Translations under genes and position numbers: made by a program
Notes under the pieces: model-generated
Told to the model about the DNA's origin: nothing
Seen by the model: only the letters and a program-made list of their open reading frames with translations
Database searches by the model: none
Assembly (NCBI GenBank): GCA_002335055.1
Contig: DDCH01000004.1
Location: 215,678-279,677, forward strand
Length of the DNA stretch: 64,000 nucleotides
Origin: Sulfurimonas sp. UBA2011
Lineage (GTDB): Bacteria; Campylobacterota; Campylobacteria; Campylobacterales; Sulfurimonadaceae
Direction: 5' to 3'
Shown: positions 8,363 through 22,627 of the stretch, piece by piece
Layout of the letters: each line of letters opens with the position of its first letter
How positions within the stretch are numbered: the stretch's first letter is position 1

Positions 8363-9064
8363 TTATACTTTTAGTCTAACGATTAACTCGTTACCAGTAA
8401 TATCAACAGTATCAGCCATTTTGAATGTTTCATTGATAACATTCATGTTAGCTTCAAGTAGTTGCTCTTTTTTCTTGAACTTTTTCTCAATAGCAGAGTC
8501 AAGTGCAGCAGTACCACCAGATGCAACGAAAGAGTTTCCAAGGAATCTCTCACGAACTGCAGCTTCGATATGCTCTGTATTAACAAGCTTAGTAAGACCA
8601 AGAACCATACCCATCATTGCCATGTTTGTTGCAAGCTCAGTACCAGCAATTTTCATTGCTAGTCTAGTTGCGTCAAACTGAACAACAGTTGCGTTTTTTT
8701 CTTCAAGTACTGCTCTGTCATCTTCATTAAGAACATCAAAGTCAGTATTGATGATGATTAGTGCATTTGGCTTAAGACCAGTATAAAATGGCATAGTATA
8801 AGACTTACCATGAGTTACAACTTGTGAGTGGTAAATCAGGATAATATCTGGGTAAATTACTTCACCTACTTCATAAATTGGATCTGTTGATGCTCTTACA
8901 TAAGCTTCAACAGGTGCCATTCTTTTCTCAGAACCAAAAAATGGAACTAGAGATGCATAGTTACCTGCATTATCAAGACATGAACCAAGGATGTGTGCAG
9001 TAGTTACAACACCTTGACCACCTAGACCAGAAATACGTATATTATATCTTTTCTTTTCAGCCAT
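8363..9064 (-). CDS. 2-oxoacid:ferredoxin oxidoreductase gamma subunit, operon 1
   Basis: It starts MAEKKRYNIRISGLGGQGV, the gamma GxGGQG motif. I prefer the ATG at 9064, which is 1 nt after the beta stop and matches the paralogue's N-terminus, over the listed start at 9091. Confidence 0.85.
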   Translation of the reverse strand: MAEKKRYNIRISGLGGQGVVTTAHILGSCLDNAGNYASLVPFFGSEKRMAPVEAYVRASTDPIYEVGEVIYPDIILIYHSQVVTHGKSYTMPFYTGLKPNALIIINTDFDVLNEDDRAVLEEKNATVVQFDATRLAMKIAGTELATNMAMMGMVLGLTKLVNTEHIEAAVRERFLGNSFVASGGTAALDSAIEKKFKKKEQLLEANMNVINETFKMADTVDITGNELIVRLKV

Positions 9065-9065
9065 T

Positions 9066-9983
9066 TTAGTTAACCGCCTCTGCTGCTGCAACTTTTGCTG
9101 CTTTTCTTGCTTTTCTTGCTACTTTTTCTTCGCCTTCAACACGCTCGATTACTATTTTAGCTTCATCAGTCATATACTCATCAAATTTGAATCTACCTTT
9201 ACCAAGCTCAATAGCATCAGCAAAAACATCTTCAGTAGGAATAGAATACTCAATGTTACAAGAAGTGTAAGCATGAATAAAAGTTGGACCAACTTCACGT
9301 GCAACGAAGATTGCTCTTCTAATAACTTTTGCAGCTTGTTTGATGTTAGTTGGTGACATTCTTACAATGTAAACACAACCAGCAGCTTTAGCTAAATCAG
9401 TCGCAGGCATTTTCTCGAAGTCTTTACCCATTGGAGCCATCTTAAGAACAGCACCTTTTGGAGACATACCAGATGATTGACCACCAGTGTTTCCGTATAC
9501 TTCATTGTCAAGCATGATTGTAGTAAATCTTTCACCACGAATCCATGAGTGCATAGTCATAGAGAAACCAATATCCATAGTACCACCGTCACCGGCAATA
9601 GTAAGAACATCTTTAGTCTTATCAGGGAAACGTAATCTAAATGCACGAGTAAGACCAGAAGCCATTGCATTTTGATCACCATAGTTACCATAGATAAATG
9701 GAACAGCAGCTTGAGAAATCGCAAGACGACCACAACCAGCAGTACCAATTGTTACTGTTTCTTCCGGGCATGGAAGTGCAGCAAAAATTAATCTAATATA
9801 GTAAGCCATCCAGCAACCTGAACACATAGGGTGCTCTTCCATTAATTCTTTAAACTGACCCATGTTACCTGGACCAGCTTCTTCTTGTGTCTTTCCAAAA
9901 GGACCGAAGTCGATTAACTCAACGTAGTCTTTTGGTAAATATTTCTTAAATCTCTCTGATGGAGTAATATATGCTAAACTCAT
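9066..9983 (-). CDS. 2-oxoacid:ferredoxin oxidoreductase beta subunit (TPP-binding), operon 1
   Basis: It carries the TPP motif GDGGTMDIG...DNEVYGNTGGQ and N-terminal cluster cysteines (CSGC...CP...GC). Confidence 0.9.
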   Translation of the reverse strand: MSLAYITPSERFKKYLPKDYVELIDFGPFGKTQEEAGPGNMGQFKELMEEHPMCSGCWMAYYIRLIFAALPCPEETVTIGTAGCGRLAISQAAVPFIYGNYGDQNAMASGLTRAFRLRFPDKTKDVLTIAGDGGTMDIGFSMTMHSWIRGERFTTIMLDNEVYGNTGGQSSGMSPKGAVLKMAPMGKDFEKMPATDLAKAAGCVYIVRMSPTNIKQAAKVIRRAIFVAREVGPTFIHAYTSCNIEYSIPTEDVFADAIELGKGRFKFDEYMTDEAKIVIERVEGEEKVARKARKAAKVAAAEAVN

Positions 9984-9998
9984 AGTTTTATCCTTTTA

Positions 9999-11183
9999 TT
10001 ATAATTTAATATTGTGCTCAATACCGAGCGCATCGTATAGTTCAACCATGATAAGTTCAACTGGAAGTGTCATACCACCGTAAACTCTTGGACCTTCAAC
10101 AACGATACCACCATTAGGGATAGTCGCTTGAATTTCCTTAGATAACCAACCAATAATGTTGTGCTCAGGAACGATAAGAGCTTTAGCATTTTTAGCAGCT
10201 TCACGGATTTCATCTTTAGGGAAAGGTCTGATTGCTTTAACTTTAATTAAACCAACTGATAAACCTTCCTCTTGTGCGTATCTCCATGCTTCTCTAGCTT
10301 GTGCAGCAGCACAACCAGATGCAACAACAAATACATCAGCTTCAGGGTTTTGAACTTCAATTGGTCCACCAAGATACTCATAGATATATTTCATTGCACG
10401 AGAGTTAGAATCCCAAATCTCTTGTTGCCATACTGAGTGAATTAAATAACTCATAAAGTTTGACTTTTGAACAGGAGCATCACGTTGAATTCTTGCTGGA
10501 GGAGTTTCATTGTCCATTGCTGGAACTGGTGAAGCTACTGGATCAAATTCTTTGTAAACTAAGTCTTCAGACATCATGTCTACATAACCCTTAGCGTGTG
10601 TTACGAAGAAACCTTCTGTAGCAACTGCAACTGGAATATAAACGTCAACTTTTTCAGCAATAGCGAATGCTGCAAGTGTGAAGTCAAATGTATCTTGCTG
10701 ATTTTCAGCATGTAACATAACTGCACCACAATGCATCATATAAGCCATTTCGATATTATCAGGTTGAATTGATAATGGAGCATTAATAACACGAGTAAGG
10801 ATACCAAGTACCGCTGGAACTCTGTGTCCTGGCCATGAAGCGATTGCCTCTAAACCACGGATAAGTCCTGGTCCTGAAGTAGCTGTAAATAGACGAACAC
10901 CAGCTCTTGATGCACCAGCGATTGCTGACATTGTACCAAGCTCTTCTTCCGCTCTATAATACTCTTTAATGTGACCTTGAGCAAAAACATCACCAACAAG
11001 GTGCATAACCTCTGATTGTGGTGTAATTGGGTAAGCAATAGCCATGTCAACATTTGCTCTTTTAACAGCTTCAGACATTGCTTGCGCACCTGTGATGAAG
11101 TGTTTCTCTCTTGGAGCCTCATGTAGAAGATAGTTCATCTCTACTTGTTTTTTATTTAATACTGGTCTTTGAACTGCACTCAT
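9999..11183 (-). CDS. 2-oxoacid:ferredoxin oxidoreductase alpha subunit, operon 1
   Basis: AYPITPQSE, SGPGL and the C-terminal IRPFP segment are typical of KorA/PorA-type alpha subunits. Confidence 0.9.
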   Translation of the reverse strand: MSAVQRPVLNKKQVEMNYLLHEAPREKHFITGAQAMSEAVKRANVDMAIAYPITPQSEVMHLVGDVFAQGHIKEYYRAEEELGTMSAIAGASRAGVRLFTATSGPGLIRGLEAIASWPGHRVPAVLGILTRVINAPLSIQPDNIEMAYMMHCGAVMLHAENQQDTFDFTLAAFAIAEKVDVYIPVAVATEGFFVTHAKGYVDMMSEDLVYKEFDPVASPVPAMDNETPPARIQRDAPVQKSNFMSYLIHSVWQQEIWDSNSRAMKYIYEYLGGPIEVQNPEADVFVVASGCAAAQAREAWRYAQEEGLSVGLIKVKAIRPFPKDEIREAAKNAKALIVPEHNIIGWLSKEIQATIPNGGIVVEGPRVYGGMTLPVELIMVELYDALGIEHNIKL

Positions 11184-11195
11184 TTAATTTCTCCC

Positions 11196-11909
11196 TTATT
11201 CCGCGTCAGTGATATGCTCACCCTTCTTAGTCATGATGAGACTTCTATACTCGCCATAATCAGCAGGTGATAATGTACTGTTGTCCTCTTTTGGTAAAGA
11301 TGGATTTTCAGGTGGTAAAGTAGTTTCCCACTTAATGCCTAATTTATTTCTTTCTTCAATCACTATTTCTTTGAACTTAGCGATATCTGAAGCATGTAAA
11401 TCTCTAATTGATGCCATAGCTTCTTCATGTCCCATATAAGCACATAATGCAACTGTATAACAGTTAGTACCAGCACGAATCATTCTAAGTGTAAGGTTAG
11501 CATAGTGACAATGCACACCAACAAAAATACAAGCTTCGATTCTATTATCAAGGATTGTTAAGTTGGGGTGATTTGGGTTAATCTCAGCCTTAACATCAAT
11601 CTTTGGATATTTAGGTCTGTAATCTGGCATTGGAATAATTTTACAATTAGGAATTTCAGATGCTAGATCTAAAATAGCTGCTGATTTTTCTGCAACATCT
11701 TCTTTCCAGTCCCAAAGAACTTGAGGCCCAGGGAATATTGTTGGATTTTTTCTTGTAAGTAATGCAATAGCTGCATCTCTCATCGCCTCTTCTGGTGTCA
11801 CAGTATTACCATAGAGTAAAGCTGAACCTTCTGGTGCTAGTTCAACCCCCATCGCTGGTGCGGACGTTGGCATATAGCCTGCGGGGCCTACTTCTACTAT
11901 TTTCGTCAT
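11196..11909 (-). CDS. fifth (epsilon-like) subunit of a five-subunit 2-oxoacid:ferredoxin oxidoreductase, operon 1
   Basis: It is the first gene of the operon and a paralogue of 19250..19819, sharing IFPGPQVL, DYRPKYPKID, INPNHPNLT and GVHCHYAN. A subunit of this size accompanies the For/Por five-subunit enzymes of Hydrogenobacter, as I recall. Confidence 0.65.
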   Translation of the reverse strand: MTKIVEVGPAGYMPTSAPAMGVELAPEGSALLYGNTVTPEEAMRDAAIALLTRKNPTIFPGPQVLWDWKEDVAEKSAAILDLASEIPNCKIIPMPDYRPKYPKIDVKAEINPNHPNLTILDNRIEACIFVGVHCHYANLTLRMIRAGTNCYTVALCAYMGHEEAMASIRDLHASDIAKFKEIVIEERNKLGIKWETTLPPENPSLPKEDNSTLSPADYGEYRSLIMTKKGEHITDAE

Positions 11910-12432: not shown

Positions 12433-12690
12433 TTAACAACCGCAAGAACCACAACTATCTGTACTACAACTATCTTCTGAACCATTATTAGCTGCTACTC
12501 TAATTAAATATTCATTATCATTTGACTTTTCAGCATAAAACATATGTGTTTTACAAAAATCTTCATTCATCATTTCCATGAGACTTATTGTGTATTTGTA
12601 AGCTTCTGGTTGAAATTGAAATGTAGACTCTTTTTTATATTCACTTTTTAGAAAACAAGCACATTCGCGCTCCATTGTAACTGTATACAT
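12433..12690 (-). CDS. small Cys-rich protein, CxC...CxxH family, with CSTDSCGSCGC tail
   Basis: The 85-aa ORF has AAGGA 5-6 nt upstream and a TATAAT hexamer (12728-12733) about 38 nt upstream. It is a paralogue of 12862..13179, sharing MYT..[MI].[RK]ECACF.KS and N..FC..H.F.A. Confidence 0.6.
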   Translation of the reverse strand: MYTVTMERECACFLKSEYKKESTFQFQPEAYKYTISLMEMMNEDFCKTHMFYAEKSNDNEYLIRVAANNGSEDSCSTDSCGSCGC

Positions 12691-12861: not shown

Positions 12862-13179
12862 TTAGTTTCCACCAGCATCTTTTGGTGGTTTTTCACCAGC
12901 ATCAAAGCCGATTACAACACCACTTCTACTAACAAGCTCACTTGCTGTCTCAATATCATCTTCATCGTCTTCAATAGGTCTAACATTACTATGAATAATA
13001 ATCTTATCTTGATAGTCAACAGCTTGGAAATAATGCTTCATACAAAAGTTTTGATTCATAAGGCATTCTATAACACGTGCTTTATTAATCATGTCCTCTC
13101 TTGTCTCAAATTCCATATTGTTTTTTATGTCACTTTTTATAAAACAAGCACATTCTTTGTCAATTTCTATTGTATACAT
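12862..13179 (-). CDS. small CxC...CxxH protein, last gene of the dab operon
   Basis: The 105-aa ORF has AAGGAG 5 nt upstream and lies 26 nt after dabA. C10, C12, C46 and H49 are at the same positions as in the 85-aa paralogue. The C-terminus is acidic and Gly/Pro-rich. Confidence 0.6.
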   Translation of the reverse strand: MYTIEIDKECACFIKSDIKNNMEFETREDMINKARVIECLMNQNFCMKHYFQAVDYQDKIIIHSNVRPIEDDEDDIETASELVSRSGVVIGFDAGEKPPKDAGGN

Positions 13180-13205: not shown

Positions 13206-16073
13206 TTATATCTCTTTTATAACAATAAACTCACCATTTTCATAAGAATAGACTTTTTTAGCCTCTCTATCTATGATGACGGGGCGAATCCATTCATTTA
13301 AAATAAATTCTTTTGCGATAGAATTCTCTACTGCTTTACCTACCATTTCTAAAGGTGCCTCAACAAATGAGATAAGACGAACCGGTTCGTGGTATGCTTC
13401 ACCTTCTAAAAATACAGACTGAATAGGTAGCCCAATTTTTAAGTCACTGTAGTTACCACTAAATACACCGACTTTTGATACGACGTTGTGATACACTTTT
13501 GAACCTGCACCATAGACATGGTTATCAACTGTAGAGAAGTAATGTTCTAGATTAATCCACTCACCTACAATTAATGGTCCATCAAAAATAGCTGTAAGAA
13601 TTTCAGCATCTTGGTTATCTACTTTATAGTCATAAGAGTGCATAAAAAATCTATTGTTAAGTTCTAGGTGTTTAGTATAAGACCTTGGCCCTGCAAATAC
13701 ACCCATATTACGTGCTAGTCCCCACTCAGGTCTAGTCTCAGACCAGTCCATAGACTTTATAAGCATCTCTTCTTTTGTGTTTGTAAAAGGAAGAGTTTGT
13801 GATCTCTCCTCACGTGAAAGTTGTGATGCCTTGTTGAAGTCATCTTTAATTTTTGAAAACTTTTCAGACTGTTCATCATTTAAAATTTCAGTATCAAAAA
13901 ACTTAATTTCATCAGTTGATGTAATATGAAGACCAGGCATAAACCTTGTATTTTCTGGAAGATGAATGCCTTTTTCTTTGATTTTTTCTCTAACATCTGG
14001 AGTATTAGCAATCATACAAAGCGCACGTGTGTTTGGTAAACTAATATTTCCACCACAAGCACCACAATCAAGTGCTGATTCAAAAGGATTATTATCAGAA
14101 ACAGATCCATGTCCAATTATTGTAATAAATTCTGGAAAGTTTTTCACCTGTCCAATCATTGTTAAGTATTTATATAGATAAGAAACTTTTTCTTCTAAGG
14201 TAAAACCAACCATAGCAAGCTTTTTCTTTTGGTACTCATAATCTTCTGGTGTAATCTGATATGATGTTTTAAGCTCATCGATCAAAGTGTCAGGTAAGTC
14301 CTTTTTTAATGCTTCATTAAAAAGAAGGTGTTTACGAAGATTTTCTACATCATCATCAGTACAGTTTTTCTTATCATGATCATCTAAAACAGCATGAATA
14401 ATCTTAGTATGCAGTTTTTTAACATAAAATTCAATTTCATCTGATGAGAGTTTATCAAGTGTGTAAGTCGTTTTTGGCTTACTTGGTTTCATCTTAGAAA
14501 AGAACTTGTTTGTTTTGATCGGTGAAAATGTTTTACCAAATAAAGTAATACCAAAAATCCAACCAATGGCTTCTACCATTATATATGGAGTATATGGGTT
14601 GTTCTTTAAGTCACTTAAAACTTTTTTTGTCGTTTTGTAAGTTCCTTTTTTTGAACTGTACTCTTCATGTACTTCAACCGGTAATTCAAATACAACATTT
14701 TGTGGTTTAATGATAGCAGGTGCTAAAAAAAGCTCATGTGCTTTGTCAAACTCTACAAAGGCTATAGGAAGACCAAGAAAACCTCCCGCTCCAAAAGTTT
14801 CATAGGCACCTTGGCTTTCAATTGAGCGGCGCATAACTTCTGAACGAACATCTAAACAAAAAGTTGCTGAGGCTATTGCTTTTTCTTTTACAGGTACAAC
14901 ATTAACAACTTCATCTACATAATGACTAATATATGTGTCTTCTAAAGATTTAAGCCAGATATACCCTTCTTCTTCTCGTAACTTATCTAAAATAGGAGAG
15001 AGCTCAGTTAAAGGAAGTTTACTTTGCAGAACTTCATTTGAGTGTTGAATTTGAAGTGCATCTAAATGTAATTCATTTTTAACATGGTCTGCTAAGACCT
15101 TTGAAGTCTCTTCCTTGTCTTCTAACTCATCTAAAGCTATTCCAAATAGCATATTTTTATGTTTGAGTAGTTGTAAAATTACATCACTTAAGTTTGCTTC
15201 AGCATATGCAGCAAAAATCTTAAAAGTACTAATCTTATTCGTTTTTACTGCTTTGAGTTCATAGTAGAGTCTAATAGCCATATAGTCTATAAGCTCAGAT
15301 GGATACTCTTGTTGTGAAACATTATCTGGATCTTCTGAACGATACTTAATAAATCCTGCCCAACCATGAAGTTTAAGAAGGTGTGTTAAAAAGTAAGACT
15401 CAATGTCCTCTACTTGAAGTTCTTTAAATGCCTCTTCTACAAAACTCTCAGCATTTTTTGGATAATCCACAGCCTCAAAAAGTTTAAAAACCTCAAACAT
15501 ACCTAAGTTTCTGTTTGGCATAGGCATTGTAGTCTGGTCTTCATCTAGAAAACGAGAGATAAATTCAATAATACTCTTTTCAATTCCATCTTTATCATCA
15601 AGCCCAAAGAGTGCATCATTAATCTCATATAGAGTCATGTGTTTGATAAGTTGGGCTAACCATGCTTTCTCATCAGAATATAAAGAGTGTGACTGTAAGT
15701 ATGCATATAAATCATCATCAGTTTTTTCTACTTTAGAAATAAGTTCTACTCTAAGACTTGACCATAAAGGACTTACTTCCATTAAGAACTTCTTAGCAAA
15801 CTCTAAAGGAATATTAAAACCCTTGTCTGTGAGAACTTTTTTGATATTTTCTTCAAATATGCTATCGTTAATTTTACCTTCTTCATAAAGATCTTTGTAA
15901 TATGAAGAGTCCATGTAAACCTGACCACCAAAAATACTTTTAGCCTTACTCAGTCCATCTTTAAAGTGCATGTTTTCAAAACCCTTTAAAGGGTTATGAT
16001 GAATAAACGATCCAATAGGCCAATAATGCGGTACGGTGCTCTTTACAGCATTAAGTTTTTCTATAATACTCAT
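13206..16073 (-). CDS. dabA: DabA (DUF2309 family), catalytic subunit of a DAB inorganic-carbon pump
   Basis: The 955-aa product starts with HYWPIGSFIHHNPL. It has beta-carbonic-anhydrase-like metal-site motifs FCLDVRSE (C-x-D-x-R) and GHGSVSDNNPFESALDCGACGG. It is encoded next to a NuoL-like subunit. Confidence 0.85.
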   Translation of the reverse strand: MSIIEKLNAVKSTVPHYWPIGSFIHHNPLKGFENMHFKDGLSKAKSIFGGQVYMDSSYYKDLYEEGKINDSIFEENIKKVLTDKGFNIPLEFAKKFLMEVSPLWSSLRVELISKVEKTDDDLYAYLQSHSLYSDEKAWLAQLIKHMTLYEINDALFGLDDKDGIEKSIIEFISRFLDEDQTTMPMPNRNLGMFEVFKLFEAVDYPKNAESFVEEAFKELQVEDIESYFLTHLLKLHGWAGFIKYRSEDPDNVSQQEYPSELIDYMAIRLYYELKAVKTNKISTFKIFAAYAEANLSDVILQLLKHKNMLFGIALDELEDKEETSKVLADHVKNELHLDALQIQHSNEVLQSKLPLTELSPILDKLREEEGYIWLKSLEDTYISHYVDEVVNVVPVKEKAIASATFCLDVRSEVMRRSIESQGAYETFGAGGFLGLPIAFVEFDKAHELFLAPAIIKPQNVVFELPVEVHEEYSSKKGTYKTTKKVLSDLKNNPYTPYIMVEAIGWIFGITLFGKTFSPIKTNKFFSKMKPSKPKTTYTLDKLSSDEIEFYVKKLHTKIIHAVLDDHDKKNCTDDDVENLRKHLLFNEALKKDLPDTLIDELKTSYQITPEDYEYQKKKLAMVGFTLEEKVSYLYKYLTMIGQVKNFPEFITIIGHGSVSDNNPFESALDCGACGGNISLPNTRALCMIANTPDVREKIKEKGIHLPENTRFMPGLHITSTDEIKFFDTEILNDEQSEKFSKIKDDFNKASQLSREERSQTLPFTNTKEEMLIKSMDWSETRPEWGLARNMGVFAGPRSYTKHLELNNRFFMHSYDYKVDNQDAEILTAIFDGPLIVGEWINLEHYFSTVDNHVYGAGSKVYHNVVSKVGVFSGNYSDLKIGLPIQSVFLEGEAYHEPVRLISFVEAPLEMVGKAVENSIAKEFILNEWIRPVIIDREAKKVYSYENGEFIVIKEI

Positions 16074-16801
16074 AGTAGTATCTCCTTAAGTCCATATAGA
16101 CTAAACAATAGTAACATACCAACGATAAGCATGTGTGGTATTTTTTCTTTTATTGTCATATGTACATAATGTATGTTTGCGTTTGGTCTTCCAAAAAGTG
16201 TTTTTTTCATTACACCCATAGAAAGAAAAAAGTTACCAAAAAAGAGTGTTATAACAACAGCAAACCAAAGAGGATTCGACTCGCTTCCTAAAATATAGTG
16301 TAGAAAAAAGAGTGAATTTGGAAAAGGTGGATATAGCGCTACTGCAATCAGGTAAAAAGTTAAGTAACTACCAATGTATGGTCTCACTAGTGTGATCCCT
16401 GTTATGTAACGATAATTAGCACTACCATAGTTTTTCTCATAAAATCTTCCTATCAAGTAGAGACCTGAAAGGGATAAAAGAAGAGAAAGACTATATAAAG
16501 AACTCTCTCCTTCATAAAGAACAAAAAATGGAGCATTAACAAATATAAAATAATATGCAAGTTTATAAAAGTTTGTTGTTTTTGTTGCTCTATAGATAGT
16601 AAAGACTGCATTTATGAGTGAAATAATTACAAGTGATGTTTTATGCTCATTTGGTACATACAGTGAAAGCCCAATATTAGATAAAAGTGCAAAAGCACTC
16701 AGTAAAAATATATGCTTACTTTTAATAGCAGGAATTTTTTCCAATATAAGATAATAAGGAACTCCTGCGGCTAATATCAAAAATAGAATATTATAGATCA
16801 T
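16070..16801 (-). CDS. polytopic membrane protein resembling the C-terminal half of an antiporter-like (NuoM/N/L) subunit
   Basis: The 243-aa product has about 7-8 hydrophobic helices. The segment ALYPPFPNSLFFLHYILGSESNPLWFAVVITLFFGNFF recalls the PP.GF..K region of Nuo/Mrp antiporter subunits. Its start overlaps the dabB stop by 11 nt and its stop overlaps the dabA start (ATGA). Confidence 0.65.
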   Translation of the reverse strand: MIYNILFLILAAGVPYYLILEKIPAIKSKHIFLLSAFALLSNIGLSLYVPNEHKTSLVIISLINAVFTIYRATKTTNFYKLAYYFIFVNAPFFVLYEGESSLYSLSLLLSLSGLYLIGRFYEKNYGSANYRYITGITLVRPYIGSYLTFYLIAVALYPPFPNSLFFLHYILGSESNPLWFAVVITLFFGNFFLSMGVMKKTLFGRPNANIHYVHMTIKEKIPHMLIVGMLLLFSLYGLKEILL

Positions 16802-18422
16802 TTTTATTCCTTTTTAGGGCTTTAATAATATTAAAGAAGTAACCTTCTTTTGCTAGAAATTTATAAAATGACCATTTAAGGCTATTTTTGTTTTCGTTAG
16901 TTTTAAGGACTTTTGCAAAGTGTTGTGTATACATAAATAACCACCCTACAATCATAATAGCGGCTAAGATAACAAGTAACATAATAGTAGTTATGTTAAA
17001 TGTTGCTGCTTCATAAAAGAGAATTGCATTTTCTCCGTAGATAAAATGTTCTAATGATAAACCAATAAACTCATATGTAAAAAGAATAATAACAAATGAA
17101 CTTACAAGTGCTAATATAACCTTGAATGAGTCGGCTTTAGATACTTTAAAGAATGAGAGAAAAAGTTGTGTACCAGTTAACCAAGCAAAGGCCAATATAA
17201 TGATAGAAGCATTAAGCTCAAAGAAGTCATCAGTTAATACCATTTTTACACCTACAAAAGTCACAACAGGTAAGATAGTGAAAAAAGCTAAGTAGTTAAA
17301 CAGTTTTTTACTATTACTTTTAATCTTTTCTTCCCAAAAGAGCTCATATGTAAGGCGTTTAGGTAGGTTTGAGTCATGACGCGCTAACTTAATCAATGCT
17401 CCTGACTCTAAAAAGAGTGTAGCTTTGAATATACCATGGACTATGAGGTGATAAATAGCAAGAGAGAAAGCACCAAGGCCTATCTCCATAATCATATATC
17501 CCATCTGTCCAACTGTGGAGTATCCTAAAGAGCGTTTGATATCAGAGACAACAAGCATAATCAAAGAGGCAAAAATTGCTGTTACTAAACCAACTACAAA
17601 AGCGATGTTAAGTACAGCAGGTGCAAGTAGTAAAAGAAAAGCGAGTTTGTTAAGTAAAATTCCTCCTACATTAACTACACCAGCATGCATAACAGCAGAT
17701 ACAGGAGTAGGGGCTTCTGATGTATATGGTAACCAGATATGAAAAGGCATAATAGCTGACTTCATCATAGCCGCTATTAAAAAGAGTAAACCAATAACAA
17801 AAATCATTGGATTATCTACTGGTTCATGCGACATAGCTAACCATTTCTCACTTAATATAGTTAAGTCTAAACTATCAAATGTTTGATATGTTAAGATAAT
17901 AGCGATTATAAAGACTAAATCGGCAGCTTTATGAATTATCATAACCCATTTTGCATTTTTTACAGCAGTGTTTGAGCCGACATTAAATGAAACAAGCAGA
18001 TATAAACTAATACTAAGTAGTTGCCAAGCAAGAGCAAGTACTATAAGGTTGTTACTCATTACAAATAGATATATAGAAGCGAAGATAAAGTTTAAAAGAA
18101 TAAAAAATCTTCTATAACCTGCTTCATCCCACATATACTTAGTTGCATACTTTCTTATGACAAGACCGAGTATAGCAACATAAGGGACTAGTATCGCTGA
18201 GAGTTCATTATATACAAGAAGGCCATCAAAGCCAATAATCTGTGTATCATTACTTATGACATAATATGTACCATACAATGCAAGTAGTGCTATCATACTT
18301 GAAAGCATGATACTAACCCTTGGTATAAGTTCTTTTTTTCCGATAAATAGCAATAAGAATGCTATGAAAATTGGGATACCCGGAATGAGTAATATTATTT
18401 TTTCCACTGTAACTCCTGACAT
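16791..18422 (-). CDS. dabB: DabB (NuoL/ND5-like proton-conducting membrane subunit)
   Basis: The 543-aa product carries KSAIMPFHIWLPYTSEAPTPVSAVMHAGVVNVGG and DIKRSLGYSTVGQMGYM...HGIFKATLFL, the PF00361-type signature as I remember it. Confidence 0.85.
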   Translation of the reverse strand: MSGVTVEKIILLIPGIPIFIAFLLLFIGKKELIPRVSIMLSSMIALLALYGTYYVISNDTQIIGFDGLLVYNELSAILVPYVAILGLVIRKYATKYMWDEAGYRRFFILLNFIFASIYLFVMSNNLIVLALAWQLLSISLYLLVSFNVGSNTAVKNAKWVMIIHKAADLVFIIAIILTYQTFDSLDLTILSEKWLAMSHEPVDNPMIFVIGLLFLIAAMMKSAIMPFHIWLPYTSEAPTPVSAVMHAGVVNVGGILLNKLAFLLLLAPAVLNIAFVVGLVTAIFASLIMLVVSDIKRSLGYSTVGQMGYMIMEIGLGAFSLAIYHLIVHGIFKATLFLESGALIKLARHDSNLPKRLTYELFWEEKIKSNSKKLFNYLAFFTILPVVTFVGVKMVLTDDFFELNASIIILAFAWLTGTQLFLSFFKVSKADSFKVILALVSSFVIILFTYEFIGLSLEHFIYGENAILFYEAATFNITTIMLLVILAAIMIVGWLFMYTQHFAKVLKTNENKNSLKWSFYKFLAKEGYFFNIIKALKRNKNDL

Positions 18423-18882: not shown

Positions 18883-19107
18883 ATGTATTATGTAGCAAAA
18901 GTTAATTCTGACATGTGTGCTGAATATAAATGTAACACTTGTACTTTATATTGTCCAGAAGCGAATACGCTAATGTTCAATAAGGATGGTAACACATCTT
19001 GGGTCGATGAAGATAGATGTAAGGGGTGTGCACTATGTGTGTACGTATGTACTGATATGCTTGATCGTAACTGTATTACGATGGAAATGGCTGGTCACGA
19101 AGAGTAG
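18883..19107 (+). CDS. 2-oxoacid:ferredoxin oxidoreductase delta subunit (2x[4Fe-4S]), operon 2
   Basis: The protein is 100% identical to that of 8127..8351. There are 16 nucleotide differences, all synonymous. It is followed by a 142-nt spacer. Confidence 0.85.
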   Translation: MYYVAKVNSDMCAEYKCNTCTLYCPEANTLMFNKDGNTSWVDEDRCKGCALCVYVCTDMLDRNCITMEMAGHEE

Positions 19108-19249
19108 ACTCAGTAGTGTTGTACACATTGTGTATTATGTATGAGGTTATTTAGTAACAGTGAAAACTGTGTTTAGATAGTTGAAATACAAGAAAATAAA
19201 TCTATAGTTAGTATTTAATTATAATATATAAAAATTTATAGGAGAACTT

Positions 19250-19819
19250 ATGGCAAATCAAGGCCCCGCGTATTATTCACCGTATCCTGCGGCATTATAT
19301 GAAGGTGTAATTACACCACCAGAAGGAAAAGCACTTTTATTAGAAGAAGTGGTAGACGAAGAAATTGCAATGAGAGAAATCGCAAAGCAAATGTTAACTA
19401 AAGAAAATGCAACAATTTTCCCTGGTCCACAAGTGTTATATGGTTACAATGAAGAAGCAAAGAAAAAAGCTACTCTAATTAAAGAGATGGCTGAAGTTCT
19501 TAATGCTAAAATGATTCCAATGTATGACTACAGACCAAAGTATCCTAAAATTGATGCTGAAGTTGAAATCAATCCAAATCACCCGAACTTAACAATTTGG
19601 CATAACAACATTAAAGCAGCAATTTTTATTGGTGTTCACTGTCACTATGCTAACGTTGCATTAAAAATGGTTAGATGTGAAACAGATTGTTACACTATCG
19701 CTATTTGTGGTTTGTCAGGGCATGAAGATGCTATGGCTACATTAAGAGATCAGCATTCTTCAGAACTTGAGAAATTTATCAAGATAGCTAGAGAAGTAAA
19801 AGCAGAACTAAAATTATAA
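19250..19819 (+). CDS. fifth (epsilon-like) subunit, operon 2
   Basis: This 189-aa protein is a paralogue of 11196..11909 and lacks that protein's roughly 45-aa C-terminal extension. Confidence 0.65.
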   Translation: MANQGPAYYSPYPAALYEGVITPPEGKALLLEEVVDEEIAMREIAKQMLTKENATIFPGPQVLYGYNEEAKKKATLIKEMAEVLNAKMIPMYDYRPKYPKIDAEVEINPNHPNLTIWHNNIKAAIFIGVHCHYANVALKMVRCETDCYTIAICGLSGHEDAMATLRDQHSSELEKFIKIAREVKAELKL

Positions 19820-19834
19820 GAAAAGGAGAACTAA

Positions 19835-21034
19835 ATGGCATCAATTAAAGATATGACAGATACACATAACTGGTCTGGACAGAAATTAGTTACAGCAGAT
19901 CACATGCTTTTCGAAGCACCACGTGAAAAGCACTTCATGACTGGTTCTGAAGTTTTAAAAGAAGCGGTAAAAAGATGTACAGTAGATGCATCAGTATCTT
20001 ACCCAATTACACCACAATCAGAAGCAGCTCACCTTATCGGTGAACTATGGGCTGAAGGTTATGTTGGTACATACTTCCGTGGAGAAAATGAGTTCGGTGT
20101 TATGTCAGAAGTTGCTGGTTGTGCAATGGCTGGAGCAAGAACTATTACTACGACTTCAGGTCCTGGTACACTTAGAGCAATGGAAAACTTTCCACAATGG
20201 TCTGGTACAAGAATTCCTTGTCAACTAATCCTTATGGCTCGTGGTATTAACTCACCACTTACTATTCAACCTGATAATCTTGAAGTTACATTCATGTTAG
20301 AAACTGGTTGTATGATTTGGTATGCTGAAAATGTTCAAGAGTTATTTGACATGAGTATCGCTGCATTTATCGTTGCTGAAAAGCCTGATGTACATGTGCC
20401 TATCGTTACTGTTGTTGATGGTTTCTTTGTATCTCATACACGTGAGTCTGTAATGTTACCAGCTGATGATATCGCTCTTTTACCTTACGAGCCATACAAA
20501 TCTCCATTACCTCCGATTGATTCTGAAACTCCTCCAGGTCGTTTCTTAAGAGATCCATTTGTAATGAAGTCTAACTATATTTCTTATGCAACTCACGCTT
20601 CATGGCAGTGGGAAGTGAGATCTGCAGTTGAGCGTTCACGTCCATATGCTAAGCACTTCCTTAACGGTCTTGTTCATGTAACTGGAGCTCCTGACGCTGA
20701 AATCGCATTTGTTACTTGTGGTACTGCTTCTCATCAAGCAAAAGAAGCTGAAAGAGAGTTAATGAAACTTGGTGTTAAAACTAAGGTTATTAAACTTAGA
20801 ACTATCAGACCATTTCCAAAAGAAGAACTTCTTGCTGAGCTTGAAGGCGTTAAACATATTTTCGTACCAGAATTCAACGTTGTTGGTTGGTTAGAAAAAG
20901 AAGTTAAAACTGCTCTTCATAACAATCACACAGCTGAAGTTGTTGGTGGCCCTAGAGTTGCTGGTGGTATGAGTATGCCTGCTGAAGCGATTCTTAAAGA
21001 AGTGTTTGAACACATTAACGTAGAAGGAAAATAA
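19835..21034 (+). CDS. 2-oxoacid:ferredoxin oxidoreductase alpha subunit, operon 2
   Basis: It carries the SYPITPQSE, SGPGT and IRPFP motifs. Confidence 0.9.
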   Translation: MASIKDMTDTHNWSGQKLVTADHMLFEAPREKHFMTGSEVLKEAVKRCTVDASVSYPITPQSEAAHLIGELWAEGYVGTYFRGENEFGVMSEVAGCAMAGARTITTTSGPGTLRAMENFPQWSGTRIPCQLILMARGINSPLTIQPDNLEVTFMLETGCMIWYAENVQELFDMSIAAFIVAEKPDVHVPIVTVVDGFFVSHTRESVMLPADDIALLPYEPYKSPLPPIDSETPPGRFLRDPFVMKSNYISYATHASWQWEVRSAVERSRPYAKHFLNGLVHVTGAPDAEIAFVTCGTASHQAKEAERELMKLGVKTKVIKLRTIRPFPKEELLAELEGVKHIFVPEFNVVGWLEKEVKTALHNNHTAEVVGGPRVAGGMSMPAEAILKEVFEHINVEGK

Positions 21035-21035
21035 G

Positions 21036-21905
21036 ATGGCAATTGATATATACAAAATCAACCCTGAATTCCGTGACATTATGCCTAAAGAGATTATTGA
21101 TCTTGAGGAAAATGCAACATGGGCTCAAAACCGAATAAAACCACGTGGTATTAAAGAAATGCCAGATACTAAAGAGATTCTAGAAGAACACTCTTTATGT
21201 GCTGGTTGTCCTGAATCTGCTGCACTTAGATATGTTCTAGCAGCATTACCATGTCCAGAAGAGACTATAATTGTTAACTCAACTGGTTGTACTTCTTTGA
21301 TGTTCCCACACATCGCACTTCATACTGTTCACTCACTTTTTGGTAATCAAAATGCTGTTGCAACTGGTATTAAGCGTGTTCTTGACTGGAGATTTCCAGA
21401 TAAGCAAAAAGATGTTATGGTTCTAGCTGGAGACGGTGCTACTGTTGATATCGGTCTTGACTATACACTTCAGTCTTTCTTTAGACAAGAAAATATCACT
21501 ACAATTTGTTTTGATAATGAAGTTTATGCAAATACTGGTGGACAAGAATCAGGTGCAACTCCAAAAGGTCAAGTTTTCAAAATGGCACCTTTAGGTAAGA
21601 AATTTGAAAAAGTTAAAATGTGGGAATTAGCTACTACTGCTGGTTGTCATTATACTATGAACATGACTGCTTCTGCTCCTAAAGCAGTTGCTAAAGCTGT
21701 TCGTGAAGCTATTTTAGTTGCAAGAGAAATCGGACCAACATTCCTTAACATTTATACTCCTTGTATTCTTGAAATTGGACTTAGTGCAAATGAAGGTCTT
21801 GGCGAAATGAAAGATCAAGATAAAGATAGATTTGCATCTTACAAGTTTGTTTCTCCAGAAGCAGAAGAATACTTGAAAAAATGTAAAGCAGAAGGAAAGT
21901 TATAA
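21036..21905 (+). CDS. 2-oxoacid:ferredoxin oxidoreductase beta subunit (TPP-binding), operon 2
   Basis: It carries GDGATVDIG...DNEVYANTGGQ and the CAGC...CP...GC cysteines. Confidence 0.9.
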   Translation: MAIDIYKINPEFRDIMPKEIIDLEENATWAQNRIKPRGIKEMPDTKEILEEHSLCAGCPESAALRYVLAALPCPEETIIVNSTGCTSLMFPHIALHTVHSLFGNQNAVATGIKRVLDWRFPDKQKDVMVLAGDGATVDIGLDYTLQSFFRQENITTICFDNEVYANTGGQESGATPKGQVFKMAPLGKKFEKVKMWELATTAGCHYTMNMTASAPKAVAKAVREAILVAREIGPTFLNIYTPCILEIGLSANEGLGEMKDQDKDRFASYKFVSPEAEEYLKKCKAEGKL

Positions 21906-22627
21906 TGGCTAAAGATTCAATCAAAGTAAGACTTCCGGGTCTTGGTGGTCAAGGTGCAGTTACAGCTGCACACATCGCAGCTACTGCTGCTGATACTGAA
22001 GGATACTTCGCTGTGTCTAATCCATTTTTTGGTGCAGAAAAGCGTATGGCTCCATCTGAGTCTTATGCAAGAATAGGTACTGTGCCTATTTACGATAGAG
22101 GGGAAGTAATTTATCCTGATATCGTTATGATTTTCCACCCACAAGTTATTACTATGGGTAAATCATACACTATGCCTTTTTATGCTGGTATTAAAGATAA
22201 TGGTCTTGTTATTATTAACTCTGATATTGATCTTTTAACTGATGTTGATAAGAGAATTCTTGCTGACAAAAATGTTAAAGTACTTACTCGTGACTTTACT
22301 AAGTTTGCAATTGAGCAAGCTGGTACTGAACTTGCTACAAACATGGCTATGCTTGGTGCATTATTTGGTGCTCTTGGTACAATCTCTAAGTCTGCTATTG
22401 AAGAGGGAATCAAAGATAGATTCCTTAAGAAATATACAGCTTCTGGTGGTACTGCTACACTCGATTCAGTTATTGAAAAGAAATTTAAGAAAAAGAAAGA
22501 ACTTATTCAAAAAAATCTTGATACTGCATCAGCTGCTTATGATTTAACTGCTGCTTGGGCTAAAGAAGTAGGACTAGAACAAATTCTAGAACCTTCTAAG
22601 CACAACAACGGTAACATCGTAAAGTAA
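21905..22627 (+). CDS. 2-oxoacid:ferredoxin oxidoreductase gamma subunit, operon 2
   Basis: It starts MAKDSIKVRLPGLGGQGAV and is collinear with 8363..9064. Confidence 0.85.
   Translation: MAKDSIKVRLPGLGGQGAVTAAHIAATAADTEGYFAVSNPFFGAEKRMAPSESYARIGTVPIYDRGEVIYPDIVMIFHPQVITMGKSYTMPFYAGIKDNGLVIINSDIDLLTDVDKRILADKNVKVLTRDFTKFAIEQAGTELATNMAMLGALFGALGTISKSAIEEGIKDRFLKKYTASGGTATLDSVIEKKFKKKKELIQKNLDTASAAYDLTAAWAKEVGLEQILEPSKHNNGNIVK

Follow-up and report, generated by a model that had tools for sequence, protein, structure and literature searches.

A probable DAB1-type CO2-uptake operon, dabB-dabC-dabA, with a divergent DabC in Sulfurimonas

In 2021, Schmid et al. reportedly described dissolved inorganic carbon (DIC)-accumulating complexes (DACs) that differ in having one, two or three subunits, none of which is dispensable. 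Here we examine a locus of this kind at positions 13206-18422 of a 64,000-nucleotide stretch of DNA from the sulfur-oxidising bacterium Sulfurimonas sp. UBA2011 (contig DDCH01000004.1; hereafter the window), in which a polytopic protein of 243 amino acids (aa), called X below, is encoded between dabB and dabA. DAB1 systems of three genes, in which dabA and dabB enclose the gene for a small membrane protein, have been in the literature since 2018/19 (bioRxiv 10.1101/476713; PMC13144422), and Lo et al. (2026) present DAB1 as a three-subunit DAC composed of hneap_0907, hneap_0909 and the small transmembrane hneap_0908 (PMC13144422). The third protein was named DabC by Phillips et al. (2026; bioRxiv 10.64898/2026.05.01.722082), whose cryo-electron microscopy structure of Thermocrinis albus DAB1, at 2.13 A, is a DabA-DabB-DabC heterotrimer of 1:1:1 composition. 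T. albus DabC belongs to no Pfam family, is NuoM-like at half the size of NuoM, carries hydrophobic residues at the NuoM proton-path positions with no water chain, and is probably structural; DabC is required for the rescue of Escherichia coli lacking carbonic anhydrase (CA), and both the complex and the need for all subunits have been shown for H. neapolitanus and T. albus only (Phillips et al. 2026). An earlier note on this DNA, made from its sequence, had taken the described DAB/Mps systems to be only two-component; that premise does not hold, three-gene DAB1 with DabC having been known since 2018/19.

Taken against this background, the Sulfurimonas locus is very probably a DAB1-type (three-subunit DAC) CO2-uptake operon, dabB-dabC-dabA, with X as its DabC; it is not a new three-gene variant but a divergent DAB1/DabABC. 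As in the DAB1 systems of H. neapolitanus (Hneap_0907-0909), Nitrobacter hamburgensis and T. albus, the gene for a small membrane protein lies between dabB and dabA, and the order dabB-dabC-dabA is common to this locus, N. hamburgensis and the T. albus constructs. DabA is long and DabA1-like, again as in DAB1, and the zinc ligands and DabB pathway residues are conserved. DAB2/MpsAB systems (H. neapolitanus DabA2-DabB2, PDB 9rd0; H. crunogenus Tcr_0853/0854; Staphylococcus aureus MpsAB) have PF10070 and PF00361 proteins, the zinc ligands and a presumed vectorial CO2 hydration driven by the proton motive force in common with this locus, but they are without a third subunit, whereas a third gene is conserved here.

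The interval 13206-18422 is filled exactly by three minus-strand open reading frames (ORFs). The first in the direction of transcription is dabB (16791..18422, minus strand), identified from the ORF list and Pfam as encoding a NuoL-like, predicted proton-conducting membrane subunit of 543 aa. It is followed by X, or dabC (16070..16801, minus strand), whose 243-aa product is small and polytopic and corresponds to the C-terminal half of a NuoM-like antiporter subunit, and by dabA (13206..16073, minus strand), which encodes a cytoplasmic, beta-CA-like and DabA1-like subunit of 955 aa. The earlier note had described three overlapping genes, and the ORF list and our reading of the DNA bear this out: the dabB stop and dabC start overlap by 11 nt at 16791..16801 (minus strand, ATGATCTATAA), and the dabC stop and dabA start by 4 nt at 16070..16073 (minus strand, ATGA). 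Purine-rich Shine-Dalgarno-like motifs, AGGA-type and AAGGAG, lie 7-8 nt 5' of the X and dabA starts, and the peptides quoted in that note are present in the translations (YPPFPNSLFFLHYILGSESNPLWFAVV in X; FCLDVRSE and GHGS...DCGACGG in DabA). A scan for promoters and terminators returned no signals above shuffled expectation. With start and stop codons overlapping in this way, the three subunits are likely to be co-translated, and the conservation of the junction overlaps in related loci (below) fits co-expression of the genes.

Both large subunits are readily assigned. DabA matches PF10070 over the whole model (Pfam, 5e-204), and in a tblastn search of plasmids its best match was N. hamburgensis DabA1, with 99 % coverage and 31 % identity (2e-149, 498 bits). 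Against DabA2 only partial matches were obtained (267 bits, best stretch 617-936). Because an end-to-end match to DabA1 stands against partial matches to DabA2-type proteins, DabA is by its sequence of the DabA1 type, not DabA2. Its residues C406, D408, H655 and C670 align to the DabA2 zinc ligands C351, D353, H524 and C539 (ligand list from PMC13147460), in agreement with the earlier remark that DabA keeps beta-CA-like motifs and that its catalytic part looks functional. Hydrophobicity in DabA peaks at about 495-520, a stretch that may correspond to the membrane-inserted 'finger/elbow'. DabB matches PF00361 (4e-43) and PF00662 in Pfam, the former completing, with PF10070 in DabA, the profile search that had been suggested for the locus and in which X gave no match. 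Among PDB sequences, the best matches of DabB were E. coli NuoL (1e-45) and H. neapolitanus DabB2 (2e-38). DabB residues K221, H246, H325, H329 and K333 align to NuoL K229, H254, H334, H338 and K342, and this central Lys/His chain is conserved across the aligned DabBs. The position of the NuoL transmembrane helix (TM) 5 glutamate, E144, is occupied by Q134 in DabB; it is Gln in five of the seven aligned DabBs and Phe or Ile in the other two. At 543 aa, DabB is full length (559 aa for DabB1 and 551 aa for DabB2) and covers positions 8-459 of the 520 in the NuoL model. The catalytic parts of DabA and DabB thus look intact, as judged from the aligned residues.

X itself lacks any Pfam or NCBIfam match, with no match to PF00361 even at E <= 1, and it has no match among PDB sequences even at E <= 10 in a PDB set that does not include the T. 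albus DAB1 structure. It has 378 database relatives at E <= 1e-3; the best 120 of these 378 are all about 241-247 aa long, and the Campylobacterota clade is annotated only as 'hypothetical protein'. We surveyed species representatives, taking one genome per species, and obtained 50 Campylobacterota loci from Sulfurimonas, Sulfuricurvum, Sulfurovum, Arcobacteraceae and Sulfurospirillum. The genes dabB, X and dabA lie in this order on one strand at every one of the 50 loci with enough flank. With few exceptions, X and dabA overlap by 4, 10 or 13 nt in the related loci, and between dabB and X the overlap is usually 4 nt. A metagenome scan seeded with a different gene gave the same picture: the X homologue ends at the dabA start in 41 of the 42 loci that could be judged. 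The question of whether dabB-X-dabA is conserved in Campylobacterota can therefore be answered in the affirmative, from 50 species loci and 41 of 42 independently seeded ones. Given the 378 relatives and the recurrence of the three-gene arrangement in 50 Campylobacterota genomes, X is not a chance ORF. Two Sulfurimonas-related cases differ in detail: in one Sulfurimonas metagenome-assembled genome (MAG; L052 7001-7486) the X homologue stops after about 160 codons and is separated from dabA by a 244-nt gap, and in another MAG (L014 4124-5280) the 5' part of dabA is missing. These shortened X and dabA genes are probably assembly errors or pseudogenes.

Conservation of this kind also bears on whether X could be a C-terminal piece of dabB displaced by a frameshift or an assembly error, as the earlier note had warned. 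Beyond the 11-nt overlap with dabB, nothing speaks for such an origin. At 543 aa, DabB is not shortened relative to DabB1 and DabB2 (551-559 aa), a profile of X compared with this DabB by hhalign gave no match (probability 0.45 %), and in the best 120 of its 378 relatives and in the 50 genomes X forms an ORF of its own, about 243 aa long. On these grounds we rejected X as a dabB fragment, an origin that we regard as scarcely credible. A place for X within a nuo or mrp operon was likewise rejected: X homologues were never found in such an operon, and no nuo or mrp neighbours were present at any locus examined.

We next consider what kind of protein X is. An AlphaFold2 model (predicted local distance difference test, pLDDT, 82; predicted template modelling score, pTM, 0.85) contains about eight TM helices, one of them broken at YPPFP. 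In a Foldseek search of the PDB, the best matches of this model were ND4/NuoM, MrpD and NdhB, with template modelling (TM) scores of 0.6-0.7 when normalized to the query and about 0.35 when normalized to the target, which indicates that X spans half of those antiporter subunits. The X-family profile aligns to residues 287-481 of E. coli NuoM (hhalign, E 3.8e-4), including the PP-containing broken helix, and the predicted fold superposes on the C-terminal half of NuoM, ND4 and MrpD (PF00361). The resemblance to C-terminal Nuo/Mrp helices that had been noticed in this 243-aa polytopic protein is thus real, and X is 'half-antiporter-like'. Unlike NuoM, ND4 and MrpD, X is of half size, is without the TM4-8 half and without the TM12 Glu/Lys, and falls below the Pfam threshold. 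It is a derivative of the PF00361 fold rather than a member in the functional sense, since it does not have both half-channels with their Glu and Lys.

The same alignment speaks to the idea, raised in the earlier note, that X adds a second half-channel. In its fuller form, X would be an active ion-conducting module, a second proton (or Na+) half-channel that gives the Campylobacterota system a different coupling stoichiometry. Its descent from an antiporter-like fold containing the broken TM12 helix is in keeping with this, as is the invariance of the polar residues E21, N89, N190, H211 and H223 within the Campylobacterota clade. However, Glu407 of NuoM, the charged residue of the broken TM12 (equivalent to NuoL K399), aligns to Phe166 of X, so that a proton-path residue is replaced by a hydrophobic one at the single position that can be mapped; the position is Met in N. 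hamburgensis DabC, and Leu or Phe in short and long forms of the family (read by eye from the sequences). Only one pathway position can be mapped because the TM5-8 half is absent: the alignment begins at about NuoM 287, and the N-terminal half, which in NuoM carries the TM5 Glu and the TM7/TM8 Lys, has no counterpart in X. In A4, a 23-sequence alignment of the X family with remote relatives, P141, P158, P159, G204 and Y212 are the only invariant residues, none of them charged. The solved T. albus DabC, too, has hydrophobic pathway positions and no water chain. Owing to the loss of the TM12 charge, the absent TM5-8 half and the lack of an invariant charge, a second proton half-channel is unlikely, and the ion-conducting module as a whole is improbable. 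By analogy, the role that best suits X is the structural or docking one put forward for T. albus DabC; the suggestion that X might serve as an anchoring module agrees with the structural or allosteric role published for DabC. That the clade-specific invariant polar residues give X an active role lacking in T. albus DabC is a less likely part of the four- or five-gene reading considered below.

For the relation of X to DabC, we took as reference the 253-aa protein of the N. hamburgensis X14 plasmid operon, which has the order dabB, 253-aa hypothetical protein, overlapping dabA and then P-II, and which is entered as DabA1 with 'DabC present' in Supplementary Table 6 of Phillips et al. (bioRxiv 10.64898/2026.05.01.722082). 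Two motifs, G..P(x16)PPFP and LFG...(Y/V)D, are visible in both X and this protein. When A4 was compared by hhalign with A3, a 24-sequence alignment of proteobacterial DabC seeded on the N. hamburgensis protein, the two matched with a probability of 97.5 % (E 7e-12) over 179 collinear columns, corresponding to X residues 57-240; X is homologous to DabC. The N. hamburgensis X14 plasmid itself carries two tandem dabB-dabC-dabA copies (L003 2557-8443 and 9476-13069), the DabC proteins of which share the accession WP_011504819.1.

A HMMER search with the X profile against 1.84 billion representative proteins returned only 34 clusters at E <= 1e-3, and genomic context was looked up for seven non-Campylobacterota matches (P0131, P0151 and P0155 were left out). 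P0140 (189 aa), P0137 (463 aa), P0146 (412 aa) and P0150 (434 aa) are each encoded between a PF00361 gene and a PF10070 gene, and in the three long forms, P0137, P0146 and P0150, a P-II gene comes next in the operon. P0144 (463 aa, PF00361) lies on a 3.4-kb contig with an overlapping partial ORF after it and no dabB upstream within reach of the contig, and for P0128 the context consists of a 1.4-kb contig only. Because short and long relatives of X sit between dabB and dabA, DabC is one family of 189-463 aa, ranging from nearly full NuoM-like to minimal forms, with X as a member; the Campylobacterota DabC clade is far diverged from the DabCs described so far. The long relatives, of 412-463 aa (L055 6001-7392, L056 2071-3462, L058 2813-4051 and L059 5001-6305), score weakly on PF00361, and such forms suggest that a NuoM-like subunit was shortened step by step to give DabC. 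At the other end of the range, the minimal 189-aa relative (L001 5001-5570, L002 2652-3221) comes from a low-GC uncultured genome (GCA_002341805.1), where a dabB of 521 aa and a dabA of 941 aa flank its gene. Among the long-DabC operons, one has a beta-CA gene upstream (L055), and another is flanked by a pyruvate/2-oxoacid:ferredoxin oxidoreductase cluster and nuo genes (L059).

Several observations weigh against the assignment of X to DabC and of the locus to DAB1. Pairwise BLASTP found no similarity between X and N. hamburgensis DabC, and a narrow, X-only profile reached only 78 % (E 1.8e-5) against proteobacterial DabC in hhalign, so that the homology depends on profile methods, which can inflate scores on hydrophobic proteins; an hhalign comparison of the X profile with the single N. 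hamburgensis DabC sequence was negative. The invariant polar residues of the Campylobacterota clade could give X an additional role. In contrast to DAB1 of N. hamburgensis, the long-DabC operons and the T. albus construct, there is no P-II gene here. A reductive tricarboxylic acid (rTCA) cycle, with no carboxysome context at this locus, makes the role of bicarbonate accumulation less obvious. The published list of 50 DabA1 operons with DabC holds Pseudomonadota and Aquificota only, with no Campylobacterota, and our literature search found no experimentally tested DAB from this phylum.

The first of these observations could mean that X and DabC are unrelated, X being a membrane protein that Campylobacterota recruited on their own and that is convergent with DabC rather than its orthologue. 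The divergence from described DAB1, whose DabC BLASTP does not connect to X, is what such an origin would lead one to expect, and the X family is compact, with just the 34 representative clusters. Against it, the profile-profile match is collinear over its 179 columns and the G..P...PPFP and LFG...Y.D motifs are common to both families; HMMER E values of 2e-10 and 1e-8, calculated for the whole 1.84-billion library, tie X to proteins whose own genes are flanked by dabB and dabA; and X agrees with published DabC in gene order, size and fold class. We therefore regard independent recruitment as very improbable and retain the assignment of X to DabC.

If X is DabC, a mechanism can be proposed for the Sulfurimonas system along the lines of the DAB1 model of Phillips et al. 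(bioRxiv 10.64898/2026.05.01.722082). CO2 diffusing into the cell would be hydrated at the buried zinc site of DabA, and proton flow through the NuoL-like DabB would drive a conformational switch that opens an exit for bicarbonate and prevents the back reaction. Hydration would then run in one direction, and bicarbonate would therefore accumulate in the cytoplasm. X would be what is left of a NuoM-like antiporter subunit that has lost all but its C-terminal helices. Its most likely place is against DabB, at the face where NuoM meets NuoL; it would help to dock and stabilise DabA, and is probably not proton-conducting itself. The three subunits would form a 1:1:1 membrane complex, with the stoichiometry borrowed from the T. 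albus structure; complex formation, the requirement for DabC, CO2 as the substrate and the coupling to protons would likewise carry over from the literature by homology. A related design is seen in the cyanobacterial NDH-1MS/MS' complexes (NdhD3/NdhF3/CupA), in which an antiporter-like pair (NuoL-like plus NuoM-like) is also combined with a zinc CO2-hydrating protein for vectorial hydration. Unlike DAB, these complexes are redox-driven via NDH-1, CupA is unrelated to DabA, and NdhD3 is full-size.

The neighbourhood of the operon sets it apart from known DAB1 systems, in that the host is a Campylobacterota with the rTCA cycle and the operon lies between 2-oxoacid:ferredoxin oxidoreductase clusters, not carboxysome/Rubisco genes. 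One cluster (8363-11909, minus strand) is downstream of the dab operon on the same strand, and the other (18883-22627, plus strand) is divergent from dabB; both were assigned by sequence features and by the Pfam annotation of a similar neighbour in L059. The two are paralogous, with corresponding subunits about 42-56 % identical, and flanking by two such clusters recurs in most related loci. Over the 14 kb around the locus, the DNA is 91.7 % identical to Sulfurimonas sp. MAG NORP9 (L004). Ferredoxin-dependent 2-oxoacid oxidoreductases are carboxylases of the rTCA cycle. Earlier work had noted that genes for DIC transporters and these carboxylases occur together in Campylobacterota (PMC13147460).

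A second difference from known DAB1 is the presence of one or two small CxC...CxxH proteins after dabA. The first gene (12862..13179, minus strand) encodes a conserved protein of 105 aa with an N-terminal domain of about 65 aa, an acidic linker and a GFD tail. Its paralogue (12433..12690, minus strand; 85 aa), 32 % identical to it, shares the CxC...CxxH core and ends in a Cys/Gly-rich stretch (..CGSCGC). In alignment A5, C10, C12, C46 and H49 are invariant within the ~65-aa domain. The small proteins have no Pfam, NCBIfam or PDB-sequence match, and a model of the small Cys protein (pLDDT 65) gave no significant fold match. Among the 50 genome loci, 44 have the small gene after dabA, as do 73 of the 74 metagenome loci that could be judged, and most related loci contain a second copy. 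The one exception among the metagenome loci, with a small CxC...CxxH gene but no dabA upstream, is L115 1729-2034. The 105-aa gene probably has an accessory function in the dab operon of Campylobacterota. P-II is absent after dabA here, and the small genes occupy its place. We tentatively suggest, as a possibility that we ourselves hold to be doubtful, that Campylobacterota DAB1 is a four- or five-gene system, in which a very divergent DabC is accompanied by previously undescribed small beta/alpha CxC...CxxH proteins that replace P-II. These might partner DabA in regulation or zinc handling and so adjust CO2 uptake to the needs of the neighbouring ferredoxin-dependent rTCA carboxylases.

What is new here is modest, namely the divergent Campylobacterota DabC clade and the small CxC...CxxH proteins after dabA. 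The known mechanism is unchanged by these findings, which serve mainly as a correction: in Sulfurimonas, Sulfuricurvum, Sulfurovum and their relatives, the 'hypothetical protein' whose gene lies between dabB and dabA can be annotated as DabC. The 189-463 aa range of DabC helps to understand how the subunit was reduced and which of its helices are indispensable, and the small Cys/His proteins in the place of P-II offer a testable lead for the regulation or metallation of DAB. These Campylobacterota, autotrophs of vents and redoxclines that use the rTCA cycle and were left out of the published DabA1/DabC survey, can be counted among the carriers of three-subunit DAB1.

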